From Rhodobacter capsulatus SB 1003 (GTDB taxonomy: Bacteria > Pseudomonadota > Alphaproteobacteria > Rhodobacterales > Rhodobacteraceae): a stretch of 32,000 nucleotides of DNA. The translations under genes were made by a program, and so were the position numbers. Location of the stretch: positions 3,090,001 through 3,122,000 of the forward strand of contig NC_014034.1 in the NCBI RefSeq assembly GCF_000021865.1, written 5' to 3'. Each line of letters opens with the position of its first letter. Within the stretch, counting starts at the first letter, position 1. The notes beneath the pieces were generated by a model, which was not told the origin of the DNA, ran no database searches, and saw only the letters and a program-made list of their open reading frames with translations. Shown piece by piece: positions 10,438 through 32,000 of the stretch.

Positions 10438-10522
10438 CGCGCCACGAATTTTTGCAGTGCGTGCCACAGATATTTGCAGCAGACGCGTTTTCGTTAAACG
10501 GCCCTTTATGACCCATTGAAAC

Positions 10523-10548: not shown

Positions 10549-10566
10549 AAAGCCCCGGTCGATCGG

Positions 10567-11388: not shown

Positions 11389-11542
11389 ATAGGTCGCCGG
11401 GCTGGCCCGCGTCAGGGACCAGGGCGACCCGAGGGCAGACCCGTCACAAAATCATGCAGCATCACCGGCATGACCCCGCCCACTGCATAGCCTGCGAGCG
11501 GTTGCACGCCGCCGCCCATCCCGCACCCCGGAAGCCCCATCA

Positions 11543-11806: not shown

Positions 11807-11815
11807 CTTACACCT

Positions 11816-13162: not shown

Positions 13163-13163
13163 G

Positions 13164-18079: not shown

Positions 18080-18081
18080 CG

Positions 18082-20400
18082 TCACCTCCCCACCCGGCCC
18101 AGACCATAGGTCCCGGCCATGACGGCAGGCAGCGGCCCGCGCCCGGTGGCGATGTCCTCGGCGATCACGCCGCGGATCTGATCGATCATCACGTCGATGA
18201 TCCGGTCCCCGCCCTCCTGCCGCTCGACCGTCTCGGCCTTGGTGCCGGGGGCATTGTTGTAGACGTTGACCGTCACCGGAGCGCCCGCGCCGCCGGAGGC
18301 CCGCACCCCGAGCTTGCCCGTCGAATCGCGATCGAGCGGCAAGATCGCCTCGGGACCGGCCTCGCCCATCAACCCCGTGCCCTTGGCAAAGGCAAAGAGC
18401 GTCGGCCGATCGACGATCGTGCCGCTGTAGGCAGAGATGCCCGCCCCGGAATAGACGCCGCCCTTGGCGTTTGCCGCCACGGCCGTCGGACCGAAGACCG
18501 CGCCGACCAGGCTGTCGATGATCGGGTTGAAGACGGCATCGGCGATGCGCTGCGACGCGATGCGGGCAAAGGTGTCCAGCACATGCTGCCCGAAATCCGA
18601 GATCGCGTCCTTGCCGCCCTTGGCGCTGCGGATCCAGTCGTAAAGGCTCGACTGCGCGGCCTTTTTGGCCGACTCGGAGATCTTGTCATTGACGTCGTCA
18701 TAGTCGTCGGCCAGGCCGCGCACCTCTAGCCGCCACTTTTCGACGGCCTTGGCCGCCTGATCGCCCGAGACGTCATTGGCGGCCTGCATCTTCGGGATCA
18801 GCTCGGCGATCGAGGCCGCGGCGCGGTCCTTGGCGCGCGAAATCGCCTCCTCGCCCTCGGCCGTGGACATCAGCCCCAGCGCGACCTTTTCGTGGATCGC
18901 GGCAATGGCCAGGTCCATCGCCGCCAGCGCCTCTTCGGCCGCCTTGGTCACGGCGTCGAAGCTGTCGCGATCAACCGACCTGGCGCCGCCACCGCCTCCC
19001 GCCGCCCCGCGGCGGGCTTCAGCCCTCAGCCGGTCCCGGGTGTACCCGGTGCCGCTGTGGACCTGCGGGCGCTGCGATCCGCGCTCGTCATCCATCGCCG
19101 TCAAGCCGGTCGGATCCGTCGTCGCCGTTGCGGCCGCCCGGGCCTTGGCCGCATCCCAAAGCTGCGAGGCCAGCCGCGAGGCACCAGAGATCGCCCCGTC
19201 CAGCCACCCGGCACCGGGCACGCTGGCCCCCAGCATCGACGCGGCCCCCGCCGCCGAGTCGAGCGCCGTCATCAGCGCATCGCCCATGGTTTGCGCCACG
19301 GTCAGGCTGTCCGAGGCCTCGGACGCGCGCCGCTGCATGTCGGCCAGCGCTTCTGCGGCTTGGCGCAACGGCTTCGTCATGGCCTGCGAGTCAGGATAGA
19401 TCTGCTGGATGATGGCCAAGGCTTCACCGGCTGATGCTGCGATGTCGACGAAAGACGTCGAGGCCCCGACGTCATCCATGGCATCCGCAAGTTGGCGCGC
19501 CTCTTCGGCGGACATCCCGAGTTTGGCGGCCGCCGCATCGGCTTCTTCTTGGAGCATCCGGACGTTGTCCGCGTAAAGCAGCACCTGCTCCGAGCTCGCC
19601 ATGGGGTTGCTTTGCGCATTTTCGAGCGCCGCTTGCGCCTTGGTCAGCTCAGCGAACGTCTGTTGGATGCCGAGCAGCTGCCCCTTCAGCGGATCAATGG
19701 ACGCGCTCAATCCATCCAGAGCTTCGCTTGTTTCGACGCCCTTCATGTACTCCGAAAACCCCTGCACCTCGGAAGCGAAGCCGTGGAACTTCTGCTGCAC
19801 TTCAAGGGTCTGCATCGCCGCGATCTCGGCATATCTGGCGTAAGCGTCGAAGGCCTCATTGGTTTCGGAGACGGTTTTCTCCAGCTCCTTGCCGCTGGTC
19901 GATGTCCCGGTGAACATGTTGACCAGCAGCGGCAGCGACACACCGGCGATCCCGCCGATGATCGTGCCCAGAAAGCCGAAACTGGACGCGATGTCCGGGA
20001 TCTGAACGGCGATGGCCTGCACGTAATTGCCGGTCACCGACCCCATCTGCATCATCTGATTGAACTGGAATGCCAGCTGCCGGGCCATGTAGCTGACATT
20101 CGTTCCGGCCGTTCCGGCGGCCGTGCCAAGGTTGCTGAACTCTTGCTGCAGCGGCAGCACCTTCGGCGGCAGATTGTCGAGCTCTTCGCCGATCTGCCGG
20201 ATCCCCGGCGCCACGGGCGCCAGCGCCGGGCTGAGGTTGCGCAGCGGCTCGACCAGCGCCGGTCCGAGCTGCTTGCCCTTGGTGCTTGCCTGCTCGGCAG
20301 CGGCCCCGGTCTTTTCGATTTCGCCCCGCACTTGCGACATCTCGGCCTTGGCCTGATCGGCCTTGGCACGGATTTCGAAGGCTGCAACCATGTCGGTCAT
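18082..20400 (-). CDS. Tail tape measure protein (772 aa)
   Basis: It is long, Ala/Gln/Glu-rich and alpha-helical, with a hydrophobic Gly-rich segment (FGFLGTIIGGIAGVSLPLLVNMF). It lies between the chaperone pair and the distal tail genes, which is the canonical siphovirus order. Confidence 0.9.
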   Translation of the reverse strand: MTDMVAAFEIRAKADQAKAEMSQVRGEIEKTGAAAEQASTKGKQLGPALVEPLRNLSPALAPVAPGIRQIGEELDNLPPKVLPLQQEFSNLGTAAGTAGTNVSYMARQLAFQFNQMMQMGSVTGNYVQAIAVQIPDIASSFGFLGTIIGGIAGVSLPLLVNMFTGTSTSGKELEKTVSETNEAFDAYARYAEIAAMQTLEVQQKFHGFASEVQGFSEYMKGVETSEALDGLSASIDPLKGQLLGIQQTFAELTKAQAALENAQSNPMASSEQVLLYADNVRMLQEEADAAAAKLGMSAEEARQLADAMDDVGASTSFVDIAASAGEALAIIQQIYPDSQAMTKPLRQAAEALADMQRRASEASDSLTVAQTMGDALMTALDSAAGAASMLGASVPGAGWLDGAISGASRLASQLWDAAKARAAATATTDPTGLTAMDDERGSQRPQVHSGTGYTRDRLRAEARRGAAGGGGGARSVDRDSFDAVTKAAEEALAAMDLAIAAIHEKVALGLMSTAEGEEAISRAKDRAAASIAELIPKMQAANDVSGDQAAKAVEKWRLEVRGLADDYDDVNDKISESAKKAAQSSLYDWIRSAKGGKDAISDFGQHVLDTFARIASQRIADAVFNPIIDSLVGAVFGPTAVAANAKGGVYSGAGISAYSGTIVDRPTLFAFAKGTGLMGEAGPEAILPLDRDSTGKLGVRASGGAGAPVTVNVYNNAPGTKAETVERQEGGDRIIDVMIDQIRGVIAEDIATGRGPLPAVMAGTYGLGRVGR

Positions 20401-20409
20401 TTGGGGTCC

Positions 20410-21011
20410 TCAGAGGAAGCGGATATCGCCGTCGATGGGGGCGCCGGGCCGGGGTGCGGCCGCACGCGGCTGGGTGTCGGCAAAGGCGGCATGGATTGCG
20501 GCCACCAGATTGCGATGCTCGATCTCGTCCACCGCGCGATGGCCGCGCATCAGGACCTCGACCTGATCGACCGTCAGCTCTCCGACGGCGGCAAGGTCGT
20601 GTCCCCAGCGGACGAGGCGGGCGACGGCGGTTGCCCAATCGAGGCTTTCGTGATCGCCTGCATCCGCTCGCGCAGCTGGTCCCGCACCGGCAGCAGGCGC
20701 TCGGCGAAAAAACGCAGGTTGATCTCCATCACCTCGGCCAGGACCTGCATCACCTGGTCAGAGGTCATGTCCTCGAACACCGCCGCGGGCTGGCCGGTGG
20801 CGATCTCCAGCGCGGCGATGACGGCGGCGGGGTGCTGCACCACGGCCGCCAGATAATCGCCGGCGATGACGAAACCCGCAAAGGGCTCTGCCGCCTTGGA
20901 AAAAGCCCCGAACTGGCGCACCTTGAGCGGGCCAAGCGCAACTGCGACGCCCGCGATGGTGATGTGCCGCTGCCCGGGGAAGAGCGCTTCGAGGTCCTCG
21001 GAATTGGACAT
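20410..21011 (-). CDS. Predicted -1 frameshift product of the tail chaperone (gpGT analogue)
   Basis: The -1 frame opens after the TGA at 20758-20760 and runs to the TGA at 20410-20412, 10 nt before the TMP start. It encodes ...DWATAVARLVRWGHDLAAVGELTVDQVEVLMRGHRAVDEIEHRNLVAAIHAAFADTQPRAAAPRPGAPIDGDIRFL with high third-position G+C. It has no start codon of its own that gives a long ORF. Confidence 0.5.
20574..21011 (-). CDS. Tail assembly chaperone (gpG analogue)
   Basis: The 145-aa acidic protein sits between the tail tube and tape measure genes. It contains a T TTT TTC slip site, and a -1 frame stays open for ~100 further codons. Confidence 0.75.
   Translation of the reverse strand: MSNSEDLEALFPGQRHITIAGVAVALGPLKVRQFGAFSKAAEPFAGFVIAGDYLAAVVQHPAAVIAALEIATGQPAAVFEDMTSDQVMQVLAEVMEINLRFFAERLLPVRDQLRERMQAITKASIGQPPSPASSAGDTTLPPSES
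20706..20712 (-). promoter_or_regulatory. Slippery heptamer T TTT TTC in the chaperone gene
   Basis: The minus-strand zero-frame codons are CGT TTT TTC (R F F). This is the only X XXY YYZ motif in the window where both frames are open (20574-20757). Confidence 0.5.
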
Positions 21012-21015
21012 GGGA

Positions 21016-21981
21016 TTACCTCGCGATGATGGTGATTTCGGGGGCGCCGGTCTGGCCGGGCAGGAAACGCAGATCGCTTTGGATCAGCACGGACCCGTCA
21101 TCGTCGATCGCTTGCGGATTGGTCCGCTGCACCCGGCCGCCGAAGAGCGCAATCCGTTTGCCCGCGGCCGTGCCGTGCTGGAACGCGACCGAGGTCAGCG
21201 CCACCGCATTGATGTCGCTGCGCCAGGTGATCTCGTCCTCGGCCGTCAGATCGACTGCCATCTGTCCGGACACGCTCCGGTCGCCGATCCGGATCTGCTC
21301 GCCGCTCAAAATCTTGCGATGCGAGACCTTGTTGCCGATGTCGATCGTGAGGCCCTTGGAGGCCAGCACCTGGCCACCGCTGATCGTCCCGGTGGCCAGC
21401 GTCGCGCCCAGTCGGATGTCGCCCGAGGCGGCATCGGTCACCACTTCGGGGGCGATGAAGGCGGACAGATCGATCGCGGGCACCCCGGCGGGCACCGCCA
21501 AGGTGTCGAAAGCCTGGAACTCGAACGAGGCGGTGGGCACCGCATAGGCGGCCAGATTGAGCTTGACGGTGCCCCGCCCGCCGCGCGCCACATACCGCAC
21601 GCCGTCGCGGAAAAACCGAAAGGTCAGCCCCTCGAAGCCCGTGTTGACCGGCGTGTACTCGACCCGGTTGCCCGCCACGATCGTCTCGGCAAAGCCGCAG
21701 CCGCGCAAGAACTTGCCCCAGGCGGGCGGAGTGCCGGGCGTGCCCGAGCCCACCAGTTCGACGTCGAACTTGAGACGGGCGCGGCGGGTGGCGGGCAGCT
21801 CCTCCGAATTGCCGAGCCAGGGCAGCGCCAGATTGCGCGGCACGTTGTCCGGCTCGATCGCAAAGGACGGCGGATTGACCAGCAGCACCGCATCGGTGGC
21901 CGCAAAGGTCGTTTCGGCCGTGCCGTAGACGGCTTCGACTTTCGCCATGACGGCGGCGCGGCGGGTCAGACGGTCGGACAT
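21016..21981 (-). CDS. Major tail tube protein
   Basis: The ~321-aa beta-rich protein lies directly upstream of the chaperone pair. Gene order and size fit a siphovirus tube protein. ATG 21981 and GTG 21984 are alternative starts. Confidence 0.75.
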   Translation of the reverse strand: MSDRLTRRAAVMAKVEAVYGTAETTFAATDAVLLVNPPSFAIEPDNVPRNLALPWLGNSEELPATRRARLKFDVELVGSGTPGTPPAWGKFLRGCGFAETIVAGNRVEYTPVNTGFEGLTFRFFRDGVRYVARGGRGTVKLNLAAYAVPTASFEFQAFDTLAVPAGVPAIDLSAFIAPEVVTDAASGDIRLGATLATGTISGGQVLASKGLTIDIGNKVSHRKILSGEQIRIGDRSVSGQMAVDLTAEDEITWRSDINAVALTSVAFQHGTAAGKRIALFGGRVQRTNPQAIDDDGSVLIQSDLRFLPGQTGAPEITIIAR

Positions 21982-22184
21982 CACTGCGGCTCCTGCTCGG
22001 GGGTGGGCTCGGGCCCGGTTTCAACGTCGGTTTCAACGGGGCCTTGAACGGGGGTGTCATCCGCCGTCTCGCCGGGTTTGGGCACGGGCGTCAGGGTCAT
22101 GCTCCCCTCATCGAGGACGAACGACCCGCCCCGATCGGGGTAGGGTTGGACGGACGGCGCGGGCGTGGTTTTGCTCTTGCTCAT
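21981..22184 (-). CDS. Small Pro/Glu/Thr-rich phage protein (67 aa), function unknown
   Basis: It is ATGA-coupled to the upstream gene (22181-22184) and overlaps the tube gene start. The sequence is low complexity, so coding status rests mainly on the coupling and the operon fit. Confidence 0.55.
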   Translation of the reverse strand: MSKSKTTPAPSVQPYPDRGGSFVLDEGSMTLTPVPKPGETADDTPVQGPVETDVETGPEPTPEQEPQ

Positions 22185-22618
22185 GTGGGCGTGAACCTCA
22201 GCTGATCGGTGATCGAAAACGAGATGTCGTAGACGAAGCCTGCGACGGCGCGGCTCAGGGTGCAGCCGCGGAAGACCATCACGCCGACGCGGCCGCCCCA
22301 GTCCCAGCCCGCCAAAGCGGCGATGATGGCGGCGATCAGTTCGCCGATCACCGGCAGCGCCCGGGCGCCCGAGACATCCCCCGCCTTGACCGTCAGGACG
22401 ACCGAATAAAGCCGCTCGATCGACTGGACATAGGCGCCGGTGCGGGACGCCTGCGGTCCGCCCTTGATCCCGGTCGGGATGACATGGGCGGCGGGCGTCA
22501 CCTGCGGCAGCTGGCCCGTGGCGGTCAGCGCACCAAACTCGGCCGCCCCCCAGGCACGCCCGCCCAGACCGGGCACGCGCTCCTTGAGCCGGGCGGTGAT
22601 GTCATCGACCTCGGCCAT
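22181..22618 (-). CDS. Head-tail joining / tail completion protein (Mu gp37/DUF1834-like position)
   Basis: From ATG 22618 (ATGA overlap with the DUF1320 stop) it reads MAEVDDITARLKERVPGLGGRAWGAAEF...LYSVVLTVKAGD.... The assignment is positional. The upstream 170 codons of ORF 22181..23131 overlap the DUF1320 gene and are discounted. Confidence 0.6.
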   Translation of the reverse strand: MAEVDDITARLKERVPGLGGRAWGAAEFGALTATGQLPQVTPAAHVIPTGIKGGPQASRTGAYVQSIERLYSVVLTVKAGDVSGARALPVIGELIAAIIAALAGWDWGGRVGVMVFRGCTLSRAVAGFVYDISFSITDQLRFTPT

Positions 22619-23046
22619 CAGATGAAGCCCGTCATCGTGCTGGCCGAGAGCGGCCGAGGCCGGTCGGTCATCCGCACGCCGCTTGCCGCCGTGGTCTGCG
22701 GCTCGGCCCCCGCCACGGCCAGCTTGACGCGGCCATCGGCGATATCCCTGAGCATCCGCTGGGCGGTGTCGTAATCGGCCTTGGTCTTGGCGTCGGGCTC
22801 GGTCAGGTGCAGCGACCAAAAGGCCAGCACCTGCGCGATCGGCGGCAGCTGCGGCGGCACGGTGGCCAGCGGCAGCGCATAGTGGCGGGCCAGATAGCCG
22901 TCGATCGTCGCATCGGCATCGGCCAGCGCGCGGGTGATCATCGCCGCATCGATCGCGCCGGTGGCGATCTCGGCGCGGTCGGTCAGCATCACCAGCGCCG
23001 AGGCGCCGTAACGGTCGATCATCTGCTGTTGCGTCGCATAGGTCAT
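22618..23046 (-). CDS. DUF1320 (Mu gp36-like) head-tail connector protein
   Basis: From ATG 23046 the protein reads MTYATQQQMIDRYGASALVMLTDR...IDAAMITRALADADATIDGYLARHYALPL.... This matches the DUF1320 pattern as I recall it. Confidence 0.8.
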   Translation of the reverse strand: MTYATQQQMIDRYGASALVMLTDRAEIATGAIDAAMITRALADADATIDGYLARHYALPLATVPPQLPPIAQVLAFWSLHLTEPDAKTKADYDTAQRMLRDIADGRVKLAVAGAEPQTTAASGVRMTDRPRPLSASTMTGFI

Positions 23047-23165
23047 GGGGCCGATCCTGAAGGGTGGTGCCGGTGCTCTCCCGGCTGTCACGCCCGCGTT
23101 TTTGCGCTGTTGCCTGGCCTTGCGGCCTCACGCTGAGGGAGGACGTTTGCTCGCTGCCTCAAATC

Positions 23166-23408
23166 TCAGGTGGCCTCGGCGGGCGGCGCGGGGTCCGTCG
23201 CGCCGTCTTCCTCGGCGGGCGCCTCGGGGACCGTCGCCGCCGCGTCGAAAGTCACGACGCCAAGCCCGCGCAACTTGAGCGCTTCGGGCCGCGGCAGATC
23301 GACGGTGTCGCCGGGGCCATAGACCGTGCGGTCATGGTCGAGGGCGTCGATCACCTGGGCGGTGACCGTATCGGGTTCGGGGGTGGGTTCGGGCTTCTTC
23401 GCCATCAT
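23166..23408 (-). CDS. Small phage protein (80 aa), unknown function
   Basis: AAGGAGA lies 2 nt upstream of ATGATG (23403-23408). The product is MMAKKPEPTPEPDTVTAQVIDALDHDRTVYGPGDTVDLPRPEALKLRGLGVV.... It lies just downstream of the capsid gene. Confidence 0.6.
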   Translation of the reverse strand: MMAKKPEPTPEPDTVTAQVIDALDHDRTVYGPGDTVDLPRPEALKLRGLGVVTFDAAATVPEAPAEEDGATDPAPPAEAT

Positions 23409-23467
23409 CTTCTCCTTTGGGTGGGAGCACGGCGCCAGGGCGCCATGCCGCGGTCGCATCAGGCCAA

Positions 23468-24442
23468 TCAGGCGATAACGTTCTGGATGAAGTAGCCGAC
23501 GTCCTGCGCCGAGATCAGCTCGCGCACCCGCTCGCCGACGCGGATACGGAAACCGCCCTCCAGCCCGATGTCCGGATCCTCGATCCGCCCGGCCAGCCGG
23601 TCGCCGAACTGCGCCGTAAAGCCGAAGGTGATGCCGCCCTGCTCGACCGAGGCCAGCGGGTTGAGGTGCAAAAGCGCCAGGTGATTGCCCCAGGTGCGCG
23701 CCAGCGCCGGGTTCTGCCCCGGCTTGGCCGTGTTCGCCCAAGCATCGCCCACCAAGACCTCGGTGATCCCGTCGCCCGCCAGCAGCTCCTTGAACTGCTC
23801 GATCGAGATCCGGCCCTGGTTCGACACGTTGCCCTTGACCGCGTTGACGATTTTCGGGTGCGACGACAGCTTGGACCAGACCGCGCGGCCCATCACGACG
23901 GTGTTCGGGCGATAGACCAGGGTCGCATCCATCCCGGCCGCGATCACGCCGATCGGGTCCGAGTTCGCATAGTCGGAAAACTGCGACGTGCCCGACAGCG
24001 TGATCCGGCGGCTCGCCGCATAGGAGGCCGCGTTGAAGACCATGTTCGCGACCCGCAGTTCGCGGATGTTCTCGATGGTCTCGGTCAGCATCTCGGCCGC
24101 GTGGGCCTCGGGGTCATAGATCGTGCGGCCCTCGGCCTTGGCGGCATTCGCCGCGTTGATGTCCGATTGCGGGATCGGGCTGTCGAGACCGTAATCAGCC
24201 ACGTCCGAGGTCGTTTCGGTGCCGCTGAATTCGAGCTGCTTCACGGCACCCTTGCGACCGACGCGGGCGTCGGGCGTGTTGAAGGCTTCCGAGATCGGAT
24301 AGACCGTGTACTTGAACTTTTCGGCCGAGACCGGCAGGCGCGGCAGGACCTTGTCGGCAATCCGCATCGCGGAGCCATTTTTGAAGCCGATCGCCACGGC
24401 GGTAAGCGTGGCATCGACGATGAACGGGCGGCTGGTGGCCAT
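23468..24442 (-). CDS. Major capsid protein (lambda gpE / Mu-like siphophage type, 324 aa)
   Basis: The size, its position after the protease/scaffold and decoration genes, and the AAGAGG RBS all fit. The sequence is MATSRPFIVDATLTAVAIGFKN...NTPDARVGRKG...PIPQSDI...IENIRELRVANMVFNAASY, which I recognise as the capsid E-like family. Confidence 0.85.
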   Translation of the reverse strand: MATSRPFIVDATLTAVAIGFKNGSAMRIADKVLPRLPVSAEKFKYTVYPISEAFNTPDARVGRKGAVKQLEFSGTETTSDVADYGLDSPIPQSDINAANAAKAEGRTIYDPEAHAAEMLTETIENIRELRVANMVFNAASYAASRRITLSGTSQFSDYANSDPIGVIAAGMDATLVYRPNTVVMGRAVWSKLSSHPKIVNAVKGNVSNQGRISIEQFKELLAGDGITEVLVGDAWANTAKPGQNPALARTWGNHLALLHLNPLASVEQGGITFGFTAQFGDRLAGRIEDPDIGLEGGFRIRVGERVRELISAQDVGYFIQNVIA

Positions 24443-24465
24443 TGGGACCTCTTGCTGTTGGGGGA

Positions 24466-24849
24466 TCAGGCGCCGCGGTAGAACGCGCGCGGACCGACCA
24501 GGATTTCGATGACGTCGCCCGCGACACCGGGGGCCTGCGCCTTGCCGACGACGGACATGAAGACACCGGCGGTGGGGACGGCCGCGATGGCGTTGCCGTT
24601 GGCATCCGCGGTCAGCTCGGCACCCGCGGTGACGGTGCCGCCCAGCGTGACCTGACCGATGCCGGACTGCGTGACATCGACCATGTCGCCCGCCGCACCG
24701 CCGAACTGGCCGGTCACGCCCAGCACCGGATCGGTGTTGGCGGCGGCCGGGCCGATCTTGGTGCTGGCCGCCGCGTCCGAGAATTTGGCGATCTTGTAGG
24801 GGCCGATCGCGGCGCTGGCCTCATAGGCCCGGATCAGGGTGGGGATCAC
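24466..24849 (-). CDS. DUF2190-family head decoration/cement-like protein
   Basis: The 127-aa Gly/Ala/Val-rich beta protein reads ...YKIAKFSDAAASTKIGPAAANTDPVLGVTGQFGGAAGDMVDVTQSGIGQVTLGGTVTAGAELTADANGNAI.... Its GTG start forms a GTGA overlap with the protease stop. Confidence 0.75.
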   Translation of the reverse strand: MIPTLIRAYEASAAIGPYKIAKFSDAAASTKIGPAAANTDPVLGVTGQFGGAAGDMVDVTQSGIGQVTLGGTVTAGAELTADANGNAIAAVPTAGVFMSVVGKAQAPGVAGDVIEILVGPRAFYRGA

Positions 24850-25946
24850 AGCCGCATCTCCTTTTTCACATGCTGGATGGCGTCGATCATGCTGATCGAA
24901 AGGCCTTTCCCGGCCTGCTCGGTCTGGAAGGCCTTCGCCTTGTCATGCAGGACGCGCCCCTGCCGTTCGGCGTTCAGCGACAAAAACTCGCCGCCGGTCT
25001 TGATCGCGCTCGGCAGCTGCGCGGTGTGGGTCTCGCCCGCAATCGGCATGCCTTCGATCAGCTTGCGCGCCGTCTCGGGCTGCGACATGTGCAGCGAGAC
25101 GAATTCGTCCCGGTTCGCGGCGTTCAGCCCGACCCGCTTGCGGGCGATCTCGCCATCCACGAAGGCCTCGGCCGTGGCGCGGGTCGCGGCGTCGCGGATG
25201 CCTTTCAGCTCGGCCGCCTGCGCCGTCACCTGCGCCTGCAGTGCGATCAGCGTGTCCTTGCCAGAGACCGCCAGGCGCGTGGCGGCGATCAGCGCCTCGC
25301 GGTTGCCATCGACACCCAGGATCGTGCCCAGCTCGGACTGCAGGGCCACATCCTCTTCCGCTTTGCCCTTTGCTCCGGTCAGGGCTTCGACCGCGGCGAT
25401 GATTTCTTCGAGCGTCGCGGTTTCGGCCAGGCCGAGCGCGCGCGCCAGTTTCGTCAGATCCATGTCGGACTCCGAGTTGAGCGCGACGAGGCCGCGCAGG
25501 TTGGGGTAATTGACAAGAGAGGCCCGGGCGATCCGGCGCACCGTGCCATCGGCGGCGTAGATGATGACGGGCGAGATCCCGCGATACGCACGCTCTGCCA
25601 GCAGCGCGACACCCGCCGGGCTCCATTCGACCTGCCCCCAAACCCCGTCGGGGCGGGCTTCCATCGCGACGATCCGCCCGCGCGCGGGCGACGGGAGCCC
25701 GAGAGGGGCAGCCAGATCTGCCGCATGGTTTTCGTCGATGATCAGCCCGCCAGCGTCGCGGGCATCGGCTTGCAGAGACGCCGCGATGATCGCGACCGGG
25801 TCGGTGACCCGATACGGGCCGCGGCCATCATGGGTGCCGATCGTGCCCCCGGCCGAGGGCAACAGATGCACCCACTCGGGCGCATCCCCTTCGGGGAGCG
25901 GCTGGGCAGCGCAGAGCGCGAGGGAGGTGGAGGGTTTGTGCGTCAT
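24846..25946 (-). CDS. Mu gpI-like prohead protease with C-terminal scaffold (gpZ-like) region
   Basis: EWVHLLPSAGGTIGTHDGRGPYRV...IIDENHAADL...GRIVAMEARPDGVWGQVEWSPAGVALLAERAYRGISPVI matches the Mu-like prophage I protein pattern. The C-terminal half is coiled-coil and Ala/Glu-rich. ATG 25946 is preferred over GTG 25991. Confidence 0.85.
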   Translation of the reverse strand: MTHKPSTSLALCAAQPLPEGDAPEWVHLLPSAGGTIGTHDGRGPYRVTDPVAIIAASLQADARDAGGLIIDENHAADLAAPLGLPSPARGRIVAMEARPDGVWGQVEWSPAGVALLAERAYRGISPVIIYAADGTVRRIARASLVNYPNLRGLVALNSESDMDLTKLARALGLAETATLEEIIAAVEALTGAKGKAEEDVALQSELGTILGVDGNREALIAATRLAVSGKDTLIALQAQVTAQAAELKGIRDAATRATAEAFVDGEIARKRVGLNAANRDEFVSLHMSQPETARKLIEGMPIAGETHTAQLPSAIKTGGEFLSLNAERQGRVLHDKAKAFQTEQAGKGLSISMIDAIQHVKKEMRL

Positions 25947-25982
25947 GCCGACACAATGGCGGCAAAGACGGGGCGGAATAAT

Positions 25983-26037
25983 CCGCAACACCTTGCGGGG
26001 TGGTCAGATCAAGCCTGTCCCGCGCAGCCTGCGCGGG
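25983..26037 (-). promoter_or_regulatory. Two hairpins in the G-I intergenic gap
   Basis: CCGCAA-cacc-TTGCGG lies at 25983-25998. A 19-nt perfect palindrome, CCCGCGCAG-c-CTGCGCGGG, lies at 26019-26037. They sit in one of the few gaps over 100 nt in an otherwise overlapping operon. Confidence 0.3.
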
Positions 26038-26051
26038 CAATGGGGGGGCTG

Positions 26052-26507
26052 TCAATCGCCGGTAAACGCGCCCGATAGCCAATCGCGGGTTTCGGCGAGG
26101 ATGTTTTCCTTGTCCTCGTCCGAGAGGCCGAGATAGGGCCGCGCCGGGATGTCTCCCCAAAGGTGCGGCCACTGCTCCTTCGTCCCGCCGAACTGCATCA
26201 TCGCGGCATAGACGCGATCCGAGCCGATTTGGACATAATCCGCACCGGCCGCGGAGAAGATCTGGCTGTTGAGGCTGCCGGAGGTGCCAAAGAGCGGCCG
26301 ACTGTCCGTCTTGCGGGCGAGCGTGACCGGTGAGTTCGGCGCCCAGGCCGTGCCATCCGGCGCCGTACCCGCCGGAAATCGCGCCTTGGTCGAGGCCACC
26401 AGCAGCTCGCCAAGATCGCTCATGAACGTGGTCATGTCGCCCAGCTGATCCTGCAGCCGGTCGATGCCCGCCAGGATCTCGCCGTCGCGGAATTCGATGG
26501 TGATCAC
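26052..26507 (-). CDS. Phage virion morphogenesis protein (Mu gpG-like)
   Basis: From GTG 26507 (GTGA overlap with the upstream stop) it reads VITIEFRDGEILAGIDRLQDQLGDMTTFMSDLGELLVASTKARFPAGTAPDGTAWAPNSPVTLARK...YAAMMQFGG.... This matches the virion-morphogenesis/tail-completion S family. Confidence 0.85.
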   Translation of the reverse strand: MITIEFRDGEILAGIDRLQDQLGDMTTFMSDLGELLVASTKARFPAGTAPDGTAWAPNSPVTLARKTDSRPLFGTSGSLNSQIFSAAGADYVQIGSDRVYAAMMQFGGTKEQWPHLWGDIPARPYLGLSDEDKENILAETRDWLSGAFTGD

Positions 26508-26836
26508 GACAGCGCGCCGTCGGGCAGAGGATCGGCTTCGGGGGGCGGGTACTTCGCCAGCTCGCCTTCCAGCGTCCAGCCGATCGCCATCAGTTGCCAC
26601 GCCATGGACTTGGGCACATGCATTGGATCGGGTGCGGGGTAGCTTTGCTGCCAAGCAAAATGCGCGGGCTCATCCGGATGGGCAGACAGGTCCGTCAAGA
26701 TTGACCGGACGTAGGCCTCGTGGGCCGGATCGACGACCAACCCCTCGATTTTCCCCGTTGCGAAGTCGATGTCAAACTCGATCCGCCCCGCGCCGCGCGG
26801 GTGATCATGAACAGCGATGACGCGGGTTTTTGGCAT
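26504..26836 (-). CDS. Hypothetical phage protein (110 aa)
   Basis: It starts at ATG 26836 (MPKTRVIAVHDHPRGAGRIEFDIDF...), 8 nt after the upstream stop, and is GTGA-coupled downstream. No family is recognised. Confidence 0.6.
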   Translation of the reverse strand: MPKTRVIAVHDHPRGAGRIEFDIDFATGKIEGLVVDPAHEAYVRSILTDLSAHPDEPAHFAWQQSYPAPDPMHVPKSMAWQLMAIGWTLEGELAKYPPPEADPLPDGALS

Positions 26837-26843
26837 CTGGACC

Positions 26844-27140
26844 TCACACCTTCCAATAGAAAAGCACGCCAAGCGCCATTTCAAGCATCTCGGGATCGAC
26901 TTTCATTAAATCTCGCAGCATCCGGATCGATTTGATATCGGCCCCCAGAACCGGCTGCAGCGCCATCGTCAGCATTTCCAGCGCCGGGTTTGGTTTGGCG
27001 AAAGCATATTCGCGGCCTTGATAGGCGTTGTAATAATGGTCTTTTCGCGCCCACTCGCCCCTGCGGATCTGGACCAGCGGCTCGCCTTTGGTGCGTTGCC
27101 GGTGCAGATCCTGGAACAGCAGATCAAGGTCAGGACACAC
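26844..27140 (-). CDS. Hypothetical phage protein, or the 3' part of a disrupted gene
   Basis: The frame is open from the TAA at 27198-27200, and the ORF-track start is GTG 27140. The natural-looking sequence is ...LLFQDLHRQRTKGEPLVQIRRGEWARKDHYYNAYQGREYAFAKPNPALEMLTMALQPVLG.... It overlaps the 3' part of ORF 26969..27376 by ~170 nt. Confidence 0.5.
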   Translation of the reverse strand: MCPDLDLLFQDLHRQRTKGEPLVQIRRGEWARKDHYYNAYQGREYAFAKPNPALEMLTMALQPVLGADIKSIRMLRDLMKVDPEMLEMALGVLFYWKV

Positions 27141-27376
27141 CGCCTGCAGGTGGTGAGGTAATCCTTCTCGGGTTGACCGCGCCCACGGCCTGAATACTTA
27201 GCCACCGTGGCTAAGTATTCCCCGAACCGGCGCAACGCCGCGTCATTGCGCTCGATCAGGCGCATCATCGTCTGCCGCCGGGCGATTCCCAGCCGGTCTG
27301 CCAGCAGCGCCGCCGACATGCGCGGCTCGTCTCCCGCAGAAACCACAAGCTCGGTCGCTTCAAACAGTCCGTCCAT
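26969..27376 (-). CDS. Phage regulatory-protein-like ORF; only the N-terminal ~70 codons look credible
   Basis: GGAGG lies 6 nt upstream of ATG 27376. MDGLFEATELVVSAGDEPRMSAALLADRLGIARRQTMMRLIERNDAALRRFGEYLATVAKYSGRGRGQPEKDYL resembles HTH-type phage regulators (Rha/antirepressor-like). This is weak recall. The distal part (CRRCVLTLICCSRICTGN...) looks non-native and overlaps the 26844..27140 ORF. Confidence 0.45.
   Translation of the reverse strand: MDGLFEATELVVSAGDEPRMSAALLADRLGIARRQTMMRLIERNDAALRRFGEYLATVAKYSGRGRGQPEKDYLTTCRRCVLTLICCSRICTGNAPKASRWSRSAGASGREKTIITTPIKAANMLSPNQTRRWKC
27192..27220. repeat. Perfect 29-nt palindrome GAATACTTAGCCAC-c-GTGGCTAAGTATTC
   Basis: I read it directly and checked the 14-bp arms base by base. 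It lies inside ORF 26969..27376, just upstream of the point where the two overlapping ORFs diverge. Confidence 0.9.
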
Positions 27377-27695
27377 CGGTCGCCTCCATGGAAAAGACCG
27401 GCATGGCCGCCGACTGCCCGAAAGCGGATGGCCGGATGATGTTGGATTGATCGGTGCCGTTCATGGCACGCACTTCCTGCGCCCAGACCTCAACCTCGGC
27501 TTCCAGCTGATCCTCGACGCAGCGGCACAGCCCTCCGGCCTTGTCCGCCACTCCCATCGTCGCGCAGGCGATGGCATAGCCAAGGAACGAGGTGAGATCG
27601 GTCATCATCTGATTGAGGGCGCCAATGTCGCCCGCAGCCCGTGCCGCTTCAAATTCGCCGCAAAGATGGGCTTTGATCAGCGCTTCAAGGCCCAT
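27360..27695 (-). CDS. Hypothetical early-region phage protein (111 aa)
   Basis: ATG 27695 forms an ATGA overlap with the Ner-like gene stop. The product is MGLEALIKAHLCGEFEAARAAGDIGALNQMMTDLTSFLGYAIACATMG.... The upstream 54 codons of the tracked ORF overlap the Ner-like gene. Confidence 0.6.
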   Translation of the reverse strand: MGLEALIKAHLCGEFEAARAAGDIGALNQMMTDLTSFLGYAIACATMGVADKAGGLCRCVEDQLEAEVEVWAQEVRAMNGTDQSNIIRPSAFGQSAAMPVFSMEATDGRTV

Positions 27696-27952
27696 CACGC
27701 GGCCTCGCGGCGCAGGCGTTCGGTGTAAAGGCGCAGGAAGGTTTCTTCCCCCACCTCGTCGATCATCTTTTGCCGCAGCGCCCGCGCCTTGGTGCCGTTC
27801 CAACCGCCCGTGGCCGCGCTTTTGGCATTGGTCGCCGTCACCCCATGCGGGGCGCACCAGTCCTTCAGATTGGTCCCGATCACCCGCAGGTAGACTAGGA
27901 ACACATCGTAGAAGATCGGCCCCGGCTGGATGGATTTCACTTTATCTGCCAT
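27695..27952 (-). CDS. Ner/Cro-like small DNA-binding protein (85 aa)
   Basis: It starts at ATG 27952 with AGGGA upstream and is divergent from the CI-like repressor. LKDWCAPHGVTATNAKSAATGGWNGTKARALRQKMIDEVG loosely resembles the Mu Ner helix-turn-helix region. The call rests on position plus weak sequence recall. Confidence 0.55.
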   Translation of the reverse strand: MADKVKSIQPGPIFYDVFLVYLRVIGTNLKDWCAPHGVTATNAKSAATGGWNGTKARALRQKMIDEVGEETFLRLYTERLRREAA

Positions 27953-28047
27953 ATGCTTTTTCCCTGATCGGTCACACAAAGACCGTAATTCCCGTTCAAT
28001 CGCAGATTTGACGGCTATTTACGGTCATGTCAACAGGTTTTATCGCT
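27953..28047. promoter_or_regulatory. Divergent immunity-switch intergenic region with candidate operators
   Basis: It lies between the Ner-like and CI-like genes. GACCGTAA (27981-27988) and TTACGGTC (28019-28026) are inverted 8-mers. CGGTC-N7-GACCG lies at 27969-27985. TTGACG lies at 28008-28013. No clean sigma70 -10/-35 pair could be assigned. Confidence 0.4.
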
Positions 28048-28797
28048 ATGAACGCTGAGTACGGTCTTAGACTGTCGTCATGGAGAAAAGAGCAGAAGCT
28101 CTCGCAGCGGGCGCTTGGCTCTGTTCTTGGTGTAAGCCAAGGATATATAAGCGATATTGAGTCTGGCCGAAGCGAGCCGTCGCGCAACTTCCTGCAGGCT
28201 CTCACAGAGCGGTTCGGGGTCAGCGCCGACTGGATTCTCTATGGTGTCGGCCTGCCACAGACCGAGCGATCCGGCGGTTTCGAGGCTCGAAAGCCCGGAA
28301 AACGCATCGAACCTCCCGACCTCGGGCGGCCTCTTTCGGGTGATTTCCGATTCGCCGACGAAGATTTCTTCTTGATCGAGCGGATGGATCTCGACGTTTC
28401 TGCGGGCCATGGCATCGTACCCATACCTGGCGCCGAAACCGAGAGGATCGCCCTGCCGCGCTCGATGTTCCTGCGCAGTCGCCTGACGCCCGATTTCACG
28501 GTGCTGGTGCGGGTCAAGGGCGACAGCATGGCCCCGACCATTCCGGATGGAGCGCTGATCCTGCTCGACTGCAGTGTCAGGCGGGTTGACCGCGCCGGGA
28601 TCTTTGCCTTTTCGCTGGACGGTCAGTCCTATGTGAAGCGCCTGGTGCCATCGGGGACGATGGCGGACGGCAGGCCGCAGATGTTGATGCTGGTGTCCGA
28701 CAACCCGGCATTTCCGCCGGTAGCCTTGGCGGGACCAGAAATGGACCGGTTGCTGATCGCGGGGCGGGTTCGGGCGTCGATTGGCCAGTTCGATTGA
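28027..28797 (+). CDS. CI/LexA-like phage repressor (XRE HTH + S24 peptidase)
   Basis: The N-terminal HTH reads LSQRALGSVLGVSQGYISDIESGRSEPS. The C-terminal S24 domain reads VKGDSMAPTIPDGALILLD...YVKRL, giving a Ser/Lys dyad context. The start may be ATG 28027 or the internal ATG 28048 (MNAEYGLRL). Confidence 0.9.
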   Translation: MSTGFIAMNAEYGLRLSSWRKEQKLSQRALGSVLGVSQGYISDIESGRSEPSRNFLQALTERFGVSADWILYGVGLPQTERSGGFEARKPGKRIEPPDLGRPLSGDFRFADEDFFLIERMDLDVSAGHGIVPIPGAETERIALPRSMFLRSRLTPDFTVLVRVKGDSMAPTIPDGALILLDCSVRRVDRAGIFAFSLDGQSYVKRLVPSGTMADGRPQMLMLVSDNPAFPPVALAGPEMDRLLIAGRVRASIGQFD

Positions 28798-28884
28798 CGC
28801 GCGGGCCTGCGACGACGCCAACGGGTTGCAGATTATCGGTCAGGTTGTATGGTCGAGGCATTCTTGGGGATAGCGAGGTTCGTG

Positions 28885-29346
28885 ATGAAAAGCCTGACTT
28901 CGTTCACCAGCTGCGCCGGGCGAAACCTTTCGGCCTTCGCCTTGGTCGCAGTTCTGGCTGGATGCACATCGCAAGCCGCCCTCGACGCTCGTTCTCCCGA
29001 TCTGACATTTGATTTGCCTGACAACTATCAGGCCGTCTACGCGCGGACATTGACTTCGATACGCCGTTGCTGGCCAGTCGAGAACTTCGCGAGCTCGTCT
29101 GAGTTCATCCAAAGCGACCTATTCAATGAGCTTGGGTACGCGGAGATCAATCGGGGACGGGCCGATCTGATGAGCACCAGCGCTGTCGCGAAGATAAAGA
29201 TTTCGCGGGCCGGGCGCGGGTCGCGCGTCGAAGTTACGGCCCCATTCCTGGAAGCGCATCCGGCCCAAAAGGACTGGCTCGTCTACTGGATGAAGGGTGG
29301 CCAGAAGTGCCGGAAGATCGGTGAAGGCGCACCGCCGCCGCTCTGA
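28885..29346 (+). CDS. Lipoprotein of unknown function (moron next to the repressor)
   Basis: From ATG 28885 it reads MKSLTSFTSCAGRNLSAFALVAVLAGCTSQA, a signal peptide with the lipobox LAGC. No family is recognised for the mature part. Confidence 0.7.
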   Translation: MKSLTSFTSCAGRNLSAFALVAVLAGCTSQAALDARSPDLTFDLPDNYQAVYARTLTSIRRCWPVENFASSSEFIQSDLFNELGYAEINRGRADLMSTSAVAKIKISRAGRGSRVEVTAPFLEAHPAQKDWLVYWMKGGQKCRKIGEGAPPPL

Positions 29347-29369
29347 TATAGGCAGGCTGACGATGCAAA

Positions 29370-29409
29370 ATCACTTGCATGTTCGGCGCGCAGTCATGCA
29401 CCAAGTGAT
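29370..29409 (+). terminator. Imperfect hairpin 3' of the lipoprotein gene
   Basis: ATCACTTGCATG (29370-29381) pairs with CATGCA-cca-AGTGAT (29395-29409). This gives 12 bp with a 3-nt bulge and a 13-nt loop. It is followed by CTTGATAAATC, so there is no clear U-tract. Confidence 0.3.
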
Positions 29410-29490
29410 CTTGATAAATCGCATTAAGATTAGATACTTAGCTTAACATGCAACGGTTTTACGAACTCGCGGCCCGATTTGCATGTTCCG
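29375..29490. repeat. Three copies of the 9-mer TTGCATGTT (two direct, one inverted)
   Basis: TTGCATGTTCGG lies at 29375-29386. AACATGCAA, the reverse complement, lies at 29445-29453. TTGCATGTTCCG lies at 29479-29490. I read these directly from the sequence. Confidence 0.6.
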
Positions 29491-30393
29491 ATGCTGCGGC
29501 AAGCCTGCAATCCACCCTTCAAAGACCGTTTTAACACCTGTTTTTATTGGCGTTATCGGCGCTCTGCACCTGCGCCTCGGCGTATCCTCGATAGACGCCA
29601 GATCGCGCCAGAACGGCCGTTTTCCGCATCACTGCATGACATGGCGCCTGGGGCGCTTCGGCGGCGCTCGATGGCTGTAAGCCCTTTGTTTTATTGACCC
29701 ATCCAAGGTCTTCCGCCTTCAGACGGCTTCTTCCGGCTTCCTGCAGATTGTCGTGTCAAACAACACAGAAAACGTGACTTCGGCCGAGCACCTGAACAAG
29801 CGCGAAGCAGATGTTGGGAATGTTGTTGGTATAAGCCCGCATTGCACGATGAACGGCAATGATATCAATGGCTTACTGAATGGGCTGGCGGACGGGATGA
29901 GCCCAAGGCGGTTTCGGAGCACTAATTTATTCATTATAAATCAGATACTTGCAAGACCTCTGAGGTGTGAGTGATAACTGGGTGGCGGATTTGTGTAACC
30001 TCTGTGCGGCGTCATTAAGGTAAGATCAGGCGATCTATATTTGGTTATCCAGCTTGACCACTCCGCAAGATATACGAATGCGCCCACACTTCACAGCGCA
30101 AGACGGGACAGCACGTTGTCGCAAGTGAGGCGGTATTGCCATTTATTGAATGCACGTGACGAACTCCGATGAGGGAGAGCACAACGGCAATGTTGCCGCT
30201 TGCAGAAATGAACCGCAACAAGTTGGCTACGACGAAGTGCGTGCCCAAGCTAGGAGATCTAGTTCGAACCGAAAACGAGCGAGTAGAACCGCTAAAGGAC
30301 TAAGGCGGCATCAATCCGGAACAACCTCCACTACTGGCATCAGGCAGACAAGTCGCTCTACGGTATGTCATAACATCGAATTTATTTTCGAAA

Positions 30394-32000
30394 CTAGCGA
30401 GATTGCGCATCAAAGAAGGTTACGATCATTTTCATGGCAACGTCACATGCATTGAGCGCTGCGACATCTTGCCAATTATCTGTTTTTCCCATGCCCCAGT
30501 CGCATATCCCCTTTATCATCACCCACTCTTTACCATTAAATTGACCAGACGCCGAAACTGCATTGCCCTCCATTTCCCCACCTATTGCGCCAGGAAACTC
30601 TGTCCTCAAATTTTCAACAAATTCCTTGCTGTCGACCAACTTCTGCCCAGAGATAATTTGACCGAAGTATATTTTAAAATCAGCCTCAGCAAAATTTGGC
30701 CTAACCAGACGCGCGGCCTGAAGTAGGCCAGTTCCCGCAGGAAGCTTTTCGCCTCTATTAATTGTTTTCTCTGTCCCAATGCGGGCTGTCTCATAGTCCT
30801 GGATCTCCGTTGAGACAAGTACATCTCCGCATTTTTGATAAGGCTCGCCGTTCTTCTCCGGCAAGAGCCCAAAGCAGATCCCAACGCTTATTAGATGTGT
30901 AGCCCCAAGTTCCTTAAGTGCTGCAGGAAGGATCAAACCAGCGCTGTTAACTCCCAGTGATCCTGCACTAGTTCTCAGATGATATACGTGCTGACTTGTT
31001 CCTCGTGTGTACTCCGTTGCGAACCCATTGCCCACTCGCACAGGTCGACTGGAAGTAAATCCACTTTCTTTTAATTTTTGGATTAGAGCATCATCCTCAC
31101 TGTCGGTTGCCGTTGTAACTGCAATTACGTCGTTATTTTGGTGACTCACCTGACTACTCCATGTTGAGTTAAAGATCGGGTCCAATTGAGAAATTCTCGC
31201 AGCGCACTGAATTAATCGCTCGATTCCAAATCTATAGAATTCTTCAGGGTTTCCAAATTTTTTCACATAATCAATATCAAGATACTGAATAAAAACCCTA
31301 TCAATGTGCAATCGAATTGAACTCATGTCGCTGCTGTCGTTAACCTTATTTCGAGCAGAGATCGCCAAGGCATCAAGAAAAATCTGAAGATGATAGGAGA
31401 AATGCCTGTGGGGCAAACTCCCATAATGTTCGATAATATCATCAATTGACCACAAAGAAACCTGCCGCAATGCGCCTAGCGCTTGGAGCGCACGTTTCAA
31501 AAGGGGAAAGTCAAATGCAGGAAAATTTTCAACGACATCCCGGTACGAGAATTGAGGTATGCCTGTGCAAGTGGCAAGCGAACGGCGATCAGCGTAGTTC
31601 TTCATATATAAAGCAGAAATTGCCCGAGTCGCCGCCTCAATTTGCCTGGCGCTCATCTCGCCACCAGCTATGTTGGAGACCAGGAGATCTCTAGTGATTG
31701 CAAGGTCTTCTCTTTTGAAAACTTTGGACTGAATGACATTCAATCCGGATTCGAACACCGCCCTATCTGACGGACTTAGACGAACAAGATCAAAATCGAA
31801 TTTGCTCTGATCGTAAGCTAAAATTAGCCTGGATAGATCGCCAGTCATACTGAATGGGTTTCTGGTACCCAGCTGTAAATCCACTAGCCCTCCTTGGTCT
31901 GAAAAGTAAAATGGGTACCTCTCAGGCACATGGGAATATCTTGCTCGGCGGTCCTCAATAAATTCCGAAAGCGTTGCATTCGAACTGGTTGCATCTATTA
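30394..32000 (-). CDS. Large protein with a C-terminal PNP/MTAN-type nucleosidase domain and an unrecognised N-terminal region (5' end probably beyond the window)
   Basis: The ORF-track start is GTG 31929, but the same frame stays open to base 32000 (..IDATSSNATLSEFIEDRRARYSH-V-PERYPFYF). The C-terminal ~245 aa (30397-31131) reads DVIAVTTATDSE...HLISVGICFGL...GDVLVSTEIQDYE...FGQIISGQKLV...FPGAIGGEMEGNAVSASG...WVMIKGICDWG. This shows the PNP_UDP_1 fold pattern, including the EME and (S/C)D catalytic motifs. The gene is markedly AT-richer than the rest of the window. Confidence 0.85.
   Translation of the reverse strand, partial: IDATSSNATLSEFIEDRRARYSHVPERYPFYFSDQGGLVDLQLGTRNPFSMTGDLSRLILAYDQSKFDFDLVRLSPSDRAVFESGLNVIQSKVFKREDLAITRDLLVSNIAGGEMSARQIEAATRAISALYMKNYADRRSLATCTGIPQFSYRDVVENFPAFDFPLLKRALQALGALRQVSLWSIDDIIEHYGSLPHRHFSYHLQIFLDALAISARNKVNDSSDMSSIRLHIDRVFIQYLDIDYVKKFGNPEEFYRFGIERLIQCAARISQLDPIFNSTWSSQVSHQNNDVIAVTTATDSEDDALIQKLKESGFTSSRPVRVGNGFATEYTRGTSQHVYHLRTSAGSLGVNSAGLILPAALKELGATHLISVGICFGLLPEKNGEPYQKCGDVLVSTEIQDYETARIGTEKTINRGEKLPAGTGLLQAARLVRPNFAEADFKIYFGQIISGQKLVDSKEFVENLRTEFPGAIGGEMEGNAVSASGQFNGKEWVMIKGICDWGMGKTDNWQDVAALNACDVAMKMIVTFFDAQSR

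Follow-up and report, generated by a model that had tools for sequence, protein, structure and literature searches.

A candidate immune effector joining a PNP-type nucleosidase to an orphan N-terminal domain on a tRNA-Ser island of Rhodobacter capsulatus SB 1003

The effector gene

The stretch of DNA analysed here (the window, 32,000 nucleotides) covers positions 3,090,001 to 3,122,000 of the Rhodobacter capsulatus SB 1003 contig NC_014034.1. Its right-hand end carries, on the minus strand, the 3' part of a gene for a candidate immune effector, in which a nucleosidase domain of the purine nucleoside phosphorylase (PNP) type follows a large N-terminal domain. A second gene, hereafter the partner, lies upstream of it, just beyond base 32000, and the two together are called the cassette. 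The effector gene and its domains are placed as follows (aa, amino acids; HMM, hidden Markov model).

30394..32000, minus strand: 3' part of the effector gene, 1607 nt, 534 codons plus stop of the 608-aa protein WP_013068629.1
30397..31140, minus strand: PNP_UDP_1 domain of the immune (Cap17) clade, residues 361-608, by Pfam PF01048 and family HMM
31141..31998, minus strand: N-terminal alpha-helical domain, residues 75-360 in the window, the conserved family core

An earlier reading of the sequence alone (the original prediction) had claimed a long minus-strand open reading frame (ORF) at this place. The frame is indeed open over 534 codons, from the stop codon at 30394-30396 up to base 31998, and all the peptides quoted from it were found (VIAVTTATDSE, ISVGICFG, GDVLV, GGEMEG, ICDWG, ARQIEAATRAISALYMKNYADRRSL, FPLLKRALQALGALRQV and HLQIFLDALAISARNKV). 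The N-terminus had been expected to lie outside the window; 74 of the 608 residues are encoded beyond base 32000, the GTG start lying ~220 nt past the window end. The translated fragment is 100% identical to the 608-aa protein P0001, whose 90% cluster contains P0319, the R. capsulatus protein WP_013068629.1 / ADE86656.1. P0319 and P0001 are the same sequence, differing only in the written GTG start residue. Since window positions 20398-32000 are 99.97% identical to R. capsulatus CP198954.1 (locus L168), that locus shows the sequence beyond base 32000. The G+C content is 0.66-0.70 across the window and drops to 0.38-0.50 over the effector gene, in agreement with the low-G+C block described before. 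We regard it as confirmed that this ORF is a genuine gene, encoding a nucleosidase of the immune type that is joined to a large domain without known relative.

The C-terminal nucleosidase domain

The C-terminal part had been described as having the layout of PNP and methylthioadenosine (MTA) nucleosidases, and the profile search supports this. Pfam PNP_UDP_1 (PF01048) matches residues 292-517 of the translated fragment with 37.1 bits against a gathering cut-off of 25.1, the match spanning profile positions 2-221 of 233. Failure of the catalytic Glu and Asp to align had been named as a reason to drop the assignment; both align with those of MTA/S-adenosylhomocysteine (SAH) nucleosidase (MTAN). 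The motifs concerned are the following.

31096..31098, minus strand: Glu375 of TATDSE, at the position after beta-1, invariant in 31 family members
31096-31116, minus strand: TTATDSE motif, codons checked
30565-30582, minus strand: GGEMEG motif, with Glu549-Met550-Glu551 at 30568-30576
30493-30507, minus strand: ICDWG motif, with the Asp574 codon at 30499-30501, within KGICDW

Glu375 probably corresponds to MTAN Glu12, to judge by the position of its motif and by the stretch that the NCBIfam PRK05584 alignment covers. Glu549-Met550-Glu551, whose codons lie exactly where they had been placed, align in PDB alignments with MTAN E172-M173-E174 (ribose-binding Glu), and Asp574 aligns there with MTAN Asp197, the general acid (CD versus SD in MTAN). 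The catalytic-site Asp of the DtcC PNP has been mutated as D353A (bioRxiv 10.1101/2023.01.24.525353); Asp574 appears, indirectly rather than from an alignment of the two, to correspond to it. In the alignment of the 31 members, T372, E375, the GICFG glycines, D466, R489, the SGxKLVD motif, G548, M550, E551, K570, I572 and D574 are invariant, and conservation of E549 reaches at least 90%. The invariance of the catalytic motifs indicates an enzyme under purifying selection.

Sequence matches of this domain in the PDB are to MTA/SAH nucleosidases only, and weak (E of at least 1.7e-6), and databases label the protein as a member of the MTA/SAH nucleosidase family. The effector has the fold and the catalytic Glu/Asp in common with MtnN. 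However, it scores far below the cut-offs of the NCBIfam MTAN equivalogs (34.7 bits versus 169 for NF004079 and 21.2 versus 73.8 for TIGR01704), has 608 aa instead of 232, and sits in a mobile, low-G+C context without salvage neighbours. As far as sequence can tell, it is not a housekeeping MtnN, the database annotation notwithstanding.

The nearest outgroups are PNP domains joined to receiver (REC; P0058, DtcC-like), reverse transcriptase (P0095, DRT8-like), NACHT/TPR (P0070, P0076, P0080 and P0088), TIR plus metallophosphatase (P0066 and P0082), patatin and other domains. With the family PNP HMM, the REC-, reverse transcriptase-, NACHT/TPR- and TIR-fused domains score 185-226 bits, the immune PNP domains and family members together range over 185-350 bits, and E. 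coli Mtn scores 63 bits. The motifs TATxxE, GIxFG, GDVLVS, YE/YD, RG, SGxKLVD, AIGGEMEG and KGICDW are common to the immune PNP set. In addition, the PADLOC effector model 'PN-superfamily' of the cyclic oligonucleotide-based antiphage signalling system (CBASS) matches the window protein with E = 1e-6 and the homologue at locus L010 with E = 8e-14, each match being limited to the C-terminal 80-100 residues of the model. The PADLOC model PDC-M60C also matches the effector.

PNPs of the Cap17 clade cleave ATP and dATP to adenine and a sugar triphosphate in CBASS and Detocs (Rousset et al. 2023), and the isolated domains are toxic (Rousset et al. 2023, bioRxiv 10.1101/2023.01.24.525353). In Table S4 of that study, one cluster (representative 2730108097) is given no defensive context; its members come from R. 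capsulatus DE442, Y262 and R121, Devosia, Mesorhizobium, Rhizobium phaseoli and Bacteroidetes GWF2_33_16 (Rousset et al. 2023). The last is the genome that carries locus L010, and the cluster appears to be the family of the window effector. By the HMM scores and Table S4, the predicted C-terminal domain is an intact PNP of the immune Cap17/DtcC clade.

The N-terminal domain and the exchange of effectors

The region preceding the PNP domain had been predicted to be helical, with no Walker motif and no recognisable domain, and Pfam, the PDB and BFVD searches and an AlphaFold2 (AF2) model all agree with this. The model was computed on an 18-sequence alignment of residues 1-360 (predicted local distance difference test score, pLDDT, 91.3; predicted template modelling score 0.90). 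It is mostly helical and starts with a pattern that resembles a winged helix (helix-strand-helix-helix-strand). Foldseek found no relative of the model in the PDB (best E = 0.6, template modelling score, TM, at most 0.17) or in BFVD (best E 0.67). Pfam gave no match in the N-terminal region of 18 family members, and the best hit of a profile search of PDB sequences, MarR at E = 0.11, was not significant. Neither NACHT, NB-ARC, Walker motifs, REC nor SAVED were found in the effector by Pfam or by the N-terminal fold search.

A profile search of 1.84 billion representatives led to 479 cluster representatives with this N-terminal domain, almost all of ~600 aa. Nearly all are fused to PNP and a few to TIR, EAD1 or a conflict-type GT4 glycosyltransferase, with TIR either before or after the N-terminal domain. 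Across 135 diverse members, the polar residues R15, E16, E54, R91, Y95, R101, Y102, T126, T176, R199, S202, Y209 and D237, all within the first 240 residues, are conserved at levels of at least 80-99%, which suggests a ligand-binding or catalytic pocket. Since the partner is swapped in other phyla (see below) and the effector occasionally swapped, the N-terminal domain is the constant hub of the family.

Loci of effector-swapped hub variants (L172, L174 and L175) have different neighbours. A B3_4 (tRNA-binding-type) protein follows the TIR variant. The GT4 variant (L174) is followed by a flavin adenine dinucleotide (FAD) protein like partner B below, an HD protein and an N6/N4 methyltransferase. 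Finally, the EAD1 variant is preceded by a YqcI/YcgG protein and has an EAD1-trypsin gene in its vicinity.

Partner genes

The partner of the R. capsulatus effector is a 312-aa protein with a HARE-HTH (helix-turn-helix) domain and a Nudix fold. The TGA stop of its gene overlaps the GTG start of the effector as GTGA (4-nt overlap), and the effector is translationally coupled to it. In L168 the pair occupies positions 9066-11827. The original prediction had left a choice between a single protein and an operon extending past base 32000; this conserved overlapping gene decides for the operon, and the single-protein part of the proposal has become unlikely.

Partners were surveyed in 63 non-redundant loci among the matches listed in genome and metagenome scans, 60 of them informative, and the counts that follow refer to these loci. 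A partner gene is carried by 56 of the 60, nearly always immediately upstream. Partner A (~300 aa), the R. capsulatus type, occurs in 19 loci (17 immediately upstream, 2 downstream) and is present in every alphaproteobacterial close relative. In 37 loci the partner is B/C, that is, a FAD-dependent protein of ~430 aa and a DUF7768 domain of ~155 aa, which are fused or split; in locus L028 DUF7768 is fused to the effector itself (partC-Nterm-PNP). No partner was detectable in 4 loci, and 3 more have no upstream room on the contig.

The HARE-HTH domain of partner A is PF05066. Its AF2 model (pLDDT 82) gave 45 Nudix matches in the PDB with Foldseek (E < 1e-3, probability 1.0, target-normalised TM up to 0.72), including Tm1382, NadM, NudI and NrtR (3gz8). 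Among solved structures, VP0956, an uncharacterised FAD protein, is the best relative of partner B. NCBIfam and PADLOC searches of the partner proteins returned nothing useful. A relationship between the Nudix partner and DUF7768 was considered and rejected (hhalign probability 0.1). Between R. capsulatus and Phaeobacter the partners are 50% identical, and so are the effectors. Together, the gene overlap, the fusion in L028 and this divergence in step indicate that partner and effector work together.

An unlikely alternative is that the effector acts as a single-protein sensor-effector, its N-terminal domain directly recognising a phage protein or nucleic acid while the upstream gene is a regulator or an unrelated neighbour. 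The winged-helix-like start and the weak MarR match would fit such a protein, as would the DNA-binding nature of HARE-HTH and the 4 loci in which no partner was detected. These are set against the retention of a partner in 56/60 informative loci, the co-divergence of the two proteins and the DUF7768 fusion. Moreover, two structurally unrelated partner types occupy the same slot, and the role of that slot should therefore go beyond transcriptional control. We keep to a two-gene module.

The genomic island and the context of relatives

The surroundings of the effector gene were mapped with the help of locus L169, which is syntenic with the window locus.

29886..29899, minus strand: attR core, 14-nt direct repeat CATCCCGTCCGCCA of the tRNA-Ser(GGA) 3' end
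29900..30393, minus strand: non-coding tail of the island, from the effector stop to attR, G+C 0.49
29886..32000, no strand: part of the island in the window, effector plus non-coding tail
L169 4216-4305: tRNA-Ser(GGA), immediately before the island integrase

The att repeats lie at L169 4292-4305 and 12322-12335, 8030 bp apart, and their position at tRNA-Ser places the effector on an 8.03-kb island and not on the Mu-like prophage remnant described below. The attR core has a single exact match in the window, where 0.08 are expected by chance, and was confirmed by junction alignment. Read in the direction of the effector in the syntenic loci L168-L171, the island consists of an integrase, a 449-aa ORF, a resolvase, an 86-aa ORF, the 312-aa partner and the effector. 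The integrase is of the tyrosine type (463 aa, DUF6538 plus Phage_integrase). Partner and effector have a G+C content of 0.45, as against 0.59-0.66 for the island backbone (flanks, 0.67), so the island is a mosaic with recently acquired cargo.

No ORF with a family match was found in the tail at 29900..30393. Weak terminator-like hairpins are present at 30278-30293 and 30212-30233, no more than expected by chance, and the idea of a terminator after the effector gene was dropped. The 449-aa ORF was considered as a member of the system and rejected, since neither the Tn7-borne nor the Phaeobacter cassette includes it and the 444-aa ORF that takes its place in locus L164 is not similar to it.

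Loci L168 and L169, from two R. capsulatus genomes, differ directly upstream of the integrase (positions 1-4390 of each). In L169 the tRNA-Ser gene lies beside housekeeping genes. In L168 a second att core is found there, preceded by a different element with an HsdR_N protein, a DUF4411 plus M78 peptidase/HTH pair and SRAP; this arrangement suggests a tandem array of islands at one tRNA.

In relatives, the Phaeobacter cassette rides an integrase island, likewise that of a second Rhodobacterales-type genome, while the Rhodovulum kholense cassette (L165) is cargo of a Tn7-like transposon. Locus L165 contains two near-identical Tn7-like backbones (rve, TniB, TniQ and AAA_28) ~12 kb apart; partner and PNP genes are found on the first only, and the second carries different cargo. 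The 94 ORFs flanking the cassette in 24 loci include matches to components of type I, IIG and IV restriction-modification systems, Hma, PbeA and LeoBC. No salvage, transporter or kinase gene recurs among these 94 ORFs. The check proposed with the original prediction, whether homologues sit in salvage operons or in variable DNA, thus came out on the side of mobile, variable settings.

In three alphaproteobacterial loci, a gene for a dCTP deaminase/dUTPase-like protein of 157-160 aa lies 45-63 nt downstream of the cassette.

L001 11868-12341: dCTP deaminase/dUTPase-like gene
L004 3260-3733: dCTP deaminase/dUTPase-like gene
L007 11830-12312: dCTP deaminase/dUTPase-like gene

This gene may travel with the cassette as a nucleotide-depleting defence gene, or simply be the neighbour at the insertion site. 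In R. capsulatus SP36, a PNP fragment at L033 9953-10459 is truncated to 168 aa and shares ~50% identity with the window protein. It is found ~500 nt from a tRNA-Asn gene, as if a second, related cassette had decayed at this other tRNA site.

Genomic context also bears on a metabolic role. The PNP domain could be a catabolic nucleosidase, and the Nudix, FAD-oxidoreductase and N-ribosyltransferase-like proteins further enzymes of one pathway, for the detoxification or salvage of unusual nucleosides or the synthesis of a nucleoside-derived metabolite. All partners have nucleotide-acting, enzyme-like folds (Nudix, FAD protein, DUF7768, and HD in L174), and the database label of MTA/SAH nucleosidase would be in keeping with such a pathway. 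We nevertheless hold it to be very unlikely, given the shortfall in the MTAN equivalog scores (34.7 versus 169 bits), the grouping of the PNP with immune effectors and not with housekeeping clades, the alternative fusions of the hub to TIR, EAD1 and conflict GT4, the mobile and variable contexts without any recurring transporter, kinase or salvage gene, and the loss of the canonical Nudix catalytic box from partner A (see below). An immune role for the cassette is preferred.

Comparison with known systems

Detocs is one of the closest parallels. The effector resembles DtcC in having a PNP of the same immune clade (P0058, REC-PNP, 34% identity, E = 4e-25) placed as a C-terminal effector behind a regulatory N-terminal domain, and by analogy the expected output would be cleavage of ATP/dATP to adenine and abortive infection. 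However, the window effector has no REC (PF00072), its N-terminal part being a 360-residue orphan fold, and the partner is a HARE-HTH/Nudix protein. No DtcA histidine kinase, DtcB or second receiver gene is present at the R. capsulatus syntenic locus, and a kinase or second receiver gene is likewise missing from the Phaeobacter, second Rhodobacterales-type and Rhodovulum kholense loci.

With CBASS Cap17 the effector shares the PNP clade, as the match to the PADLOC 'PN-superfamily' model illustrates, and plausibly the principle of coupling a ligand sensor to PNP. It differs in having no PF18178/SAVED-type sensor and no CD-NTase, Cap2/3 or HORMA genes nearby. The exchange of PNP with TIR, EAD1 and GT4-conflict domains on one core recalls the STAND/NLR-like proteins (Avs, bNACHT) and the Aravind-type EAD systems, as does the EAD1-trypsin partner beside the EAD1 hub variant. 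Unlike STAND/NLR proteins, the hub is not an NTPase (no Walker motifs, no NACHT/NB-ARC), its model is all-helical apart from the small winged-helix-like part, and the hub protein, far smaller in size, relies on a partner of enzyme-like type encoded by a separate gene. From these sequence comparisons, the cassette is not Detocs, CBASS or NLR, and most likely represents PNP-effector immunity with an undescribed architecture.

Interpretation

In our reading, to which we assign a probability of roughly 0.6, the ORF encodes the effector subunit of a mobile two-gene anti-phage module of the abortive-infection type. What carries this reading is the combination of an immune-clade PNP, an orphan hub, conserved partners, swapped effectors, translational coupling, mobility and foreign G+C content. 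In uninfected cells, the N-terminal domain would keep the PNP inactive. Upon infection, a signal, most probably some ligand derived from nucleotides or else a feature of a nucleic acid, would be delivered through or gated by the partner and received by the N-terminal domain via its conserved polar pocket. The released PNP would then cleave the N-glycosidic bond of ATP/dATP, giving adenine and ribose-5'-triphosphate, and the collapse of the nucleotide pool would stop phage replication. In other phyla, the FAD-dependent protein and DUF7768 take the partner role, and TIR, EAD1 or GT4 occasionally the effector role.

Several observations weigh against this reading. PADLOC 2.0 does not recognise the cassette as a known system and no description of it was found in the literature searched; the same two sources, with Pfam, agree with the original prediction that the architecture matches no described defence family. 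An association with defence islands is seen in some of the 24 loci scanned only. The ATP/dATP substrate is suggested by clade membership alone, and the R. capsulatus partner gene was read from syntenic, 99.97%-identical genomes rather than from the window. Moreover, partner A does not keep the canonical Nudix box, GX5EX7REUXEEXGU, as judged from sequence and predicted secondary structure. The residues conserved instead are G176, R183, D187, E188, D190, D192, D197, G200 and R207, with off-box spacing and a helix without the EE pair. Since the box is lost and another acidic cluster (D187, E188, D190, D192 and D197) is kept in its place, partner A may be a ligand-binding regulator like NrtR rather than a hydrolase. 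Like NrtR, it joins a winged helix to a Nudix fold with a decayed canonical catalytic box; it differs in the reversed order (N-terminal HTH, of the HARE type), in the distinct acidic cluster and in being paired with an immune-type effector and not with NAD metabolism genes. Finally, a DNA-binding gene comes first and the enzyme second, with a 4-nt overlap, as would suit a toxin-antitoxin (TA) module.

Type II TA systems likewise have overlapping adjacent genes (here GTGA) with a DNA-binding protein, here of the HARE-HTH type, encoded upstream of an enzyme. The cassette could accordingly be an addiction module that stabilises the island, with the PNP as toxin and no dedicated phage sensing. The HARE-HTH/Nudix protein would be antitoxin and autorepressor, acting by direct binding or by hydrolysis of a toxic product or activator. 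Carriage as cargo of integrative islands and of a transposon is in line with this, and so is the toxicity of isolated PNP domains of the clade (Rousset et al. 2023). We consider it rather doubtful, because the 'toxin' would bear a conserved 360-residue domain with its own polar pocket, which is atypical of simple type II toxins, because the partner is replaced wholesale by FAD-dependent and DUF7768 enzymes in most phyla, and because exchange of the effector with TIR, EAD1 and GT4 is the pattern of sensor-effector immunity. The two explanations overlap, since many TA modules also abort phage infection; the anti-phage module is the one we favour.

A wider proposal is put forward tentatively, as a possibility. 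The hub may be a new fold that defines an unnamed, phylum-spanning, modular immune family, in which a variable nucleotide-processing partner makes a ligand from an infection cue and the hub reads this ligand and switches on interchangeable effectors. The partners would then be Nudix-HTH, FAD-oxidoreductase plus DUF7768 or HD, YqcI/YcgG and B3_4, and the effectors PNP, TIR, GT4 and an EAD1-recruited protease. If true, bacterial immunity would have a new signalling pathway for the surveillance of small molecules or nucleotides, and the tractable R. capsulatus SB1003 would possess it. ATP-nucleosidase (PNP) effectors are a recently recognised immune arm common to bacteria, fungi and animals. To our knowledge, their activation is understood for a few architectures only, namely CBASS, Detocs and NLRs. 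The locus would offer a fourth, structurally unrelated PNP control module, built from an orphan hub with exchangeable partners and exchangeable effectors. R. capsulatus SB1003 is a model organism with established genetics, known phages and a gene transfer agent; with a compact cassette (two genes, 2.8 kb) on a defined 8-kb island in this organism, the activation of PNP outside the known systems becomes directly testable. Such a result would correct the widespread misannotation of these proteins as MTA/SAH nucleosidases.

The prophage and the rest of the window

The gene had been described as lying next to the immunity end of a prophage, which is correct for the neighbourhood: a CI/LexA-type repressor gene is present at 28027-28797 on the plus strand, beside Mu-like head and tail genes, and the effector itself lies outside the prophage. 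The Mu-like virion genes encode a G-like protein, a protease, a scaffold, the major head protein and a tape measure. The prophage, which is related to RcapMu, extends over window positions 10500-28800, and in its tail-fibre genes it is 91% identical to RcapMu and RcWaterboi. Small ORFs alone fill the interval from the repressor gene to the G-like, protease and head genes, where no gene for a transposase, terminase or portal was seen; the prophage therefore looks like a deleted remnant.

ARAGORN called a 96-nt tRNA-Gly(GCC) at 18326-18421, inside the tape-measure ORF (18085-20400). Rfam gave no tRNA or other RNA family at its gathering score anywhere in the window, so this call is probably spurious. 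Between the prophage repressor and attR, a 165-aa ORF at 28849-29346 has a lipobox-like N-terminus and matches the BPTD_2524 lipoprotein family weakly, below the cut-off. On the left side of the prophage, at 869-8813, five consecutive plus-strand ORFs (430, 1030, 232, 364 and 594 aa) have a host-like G+C content at third codon positions.

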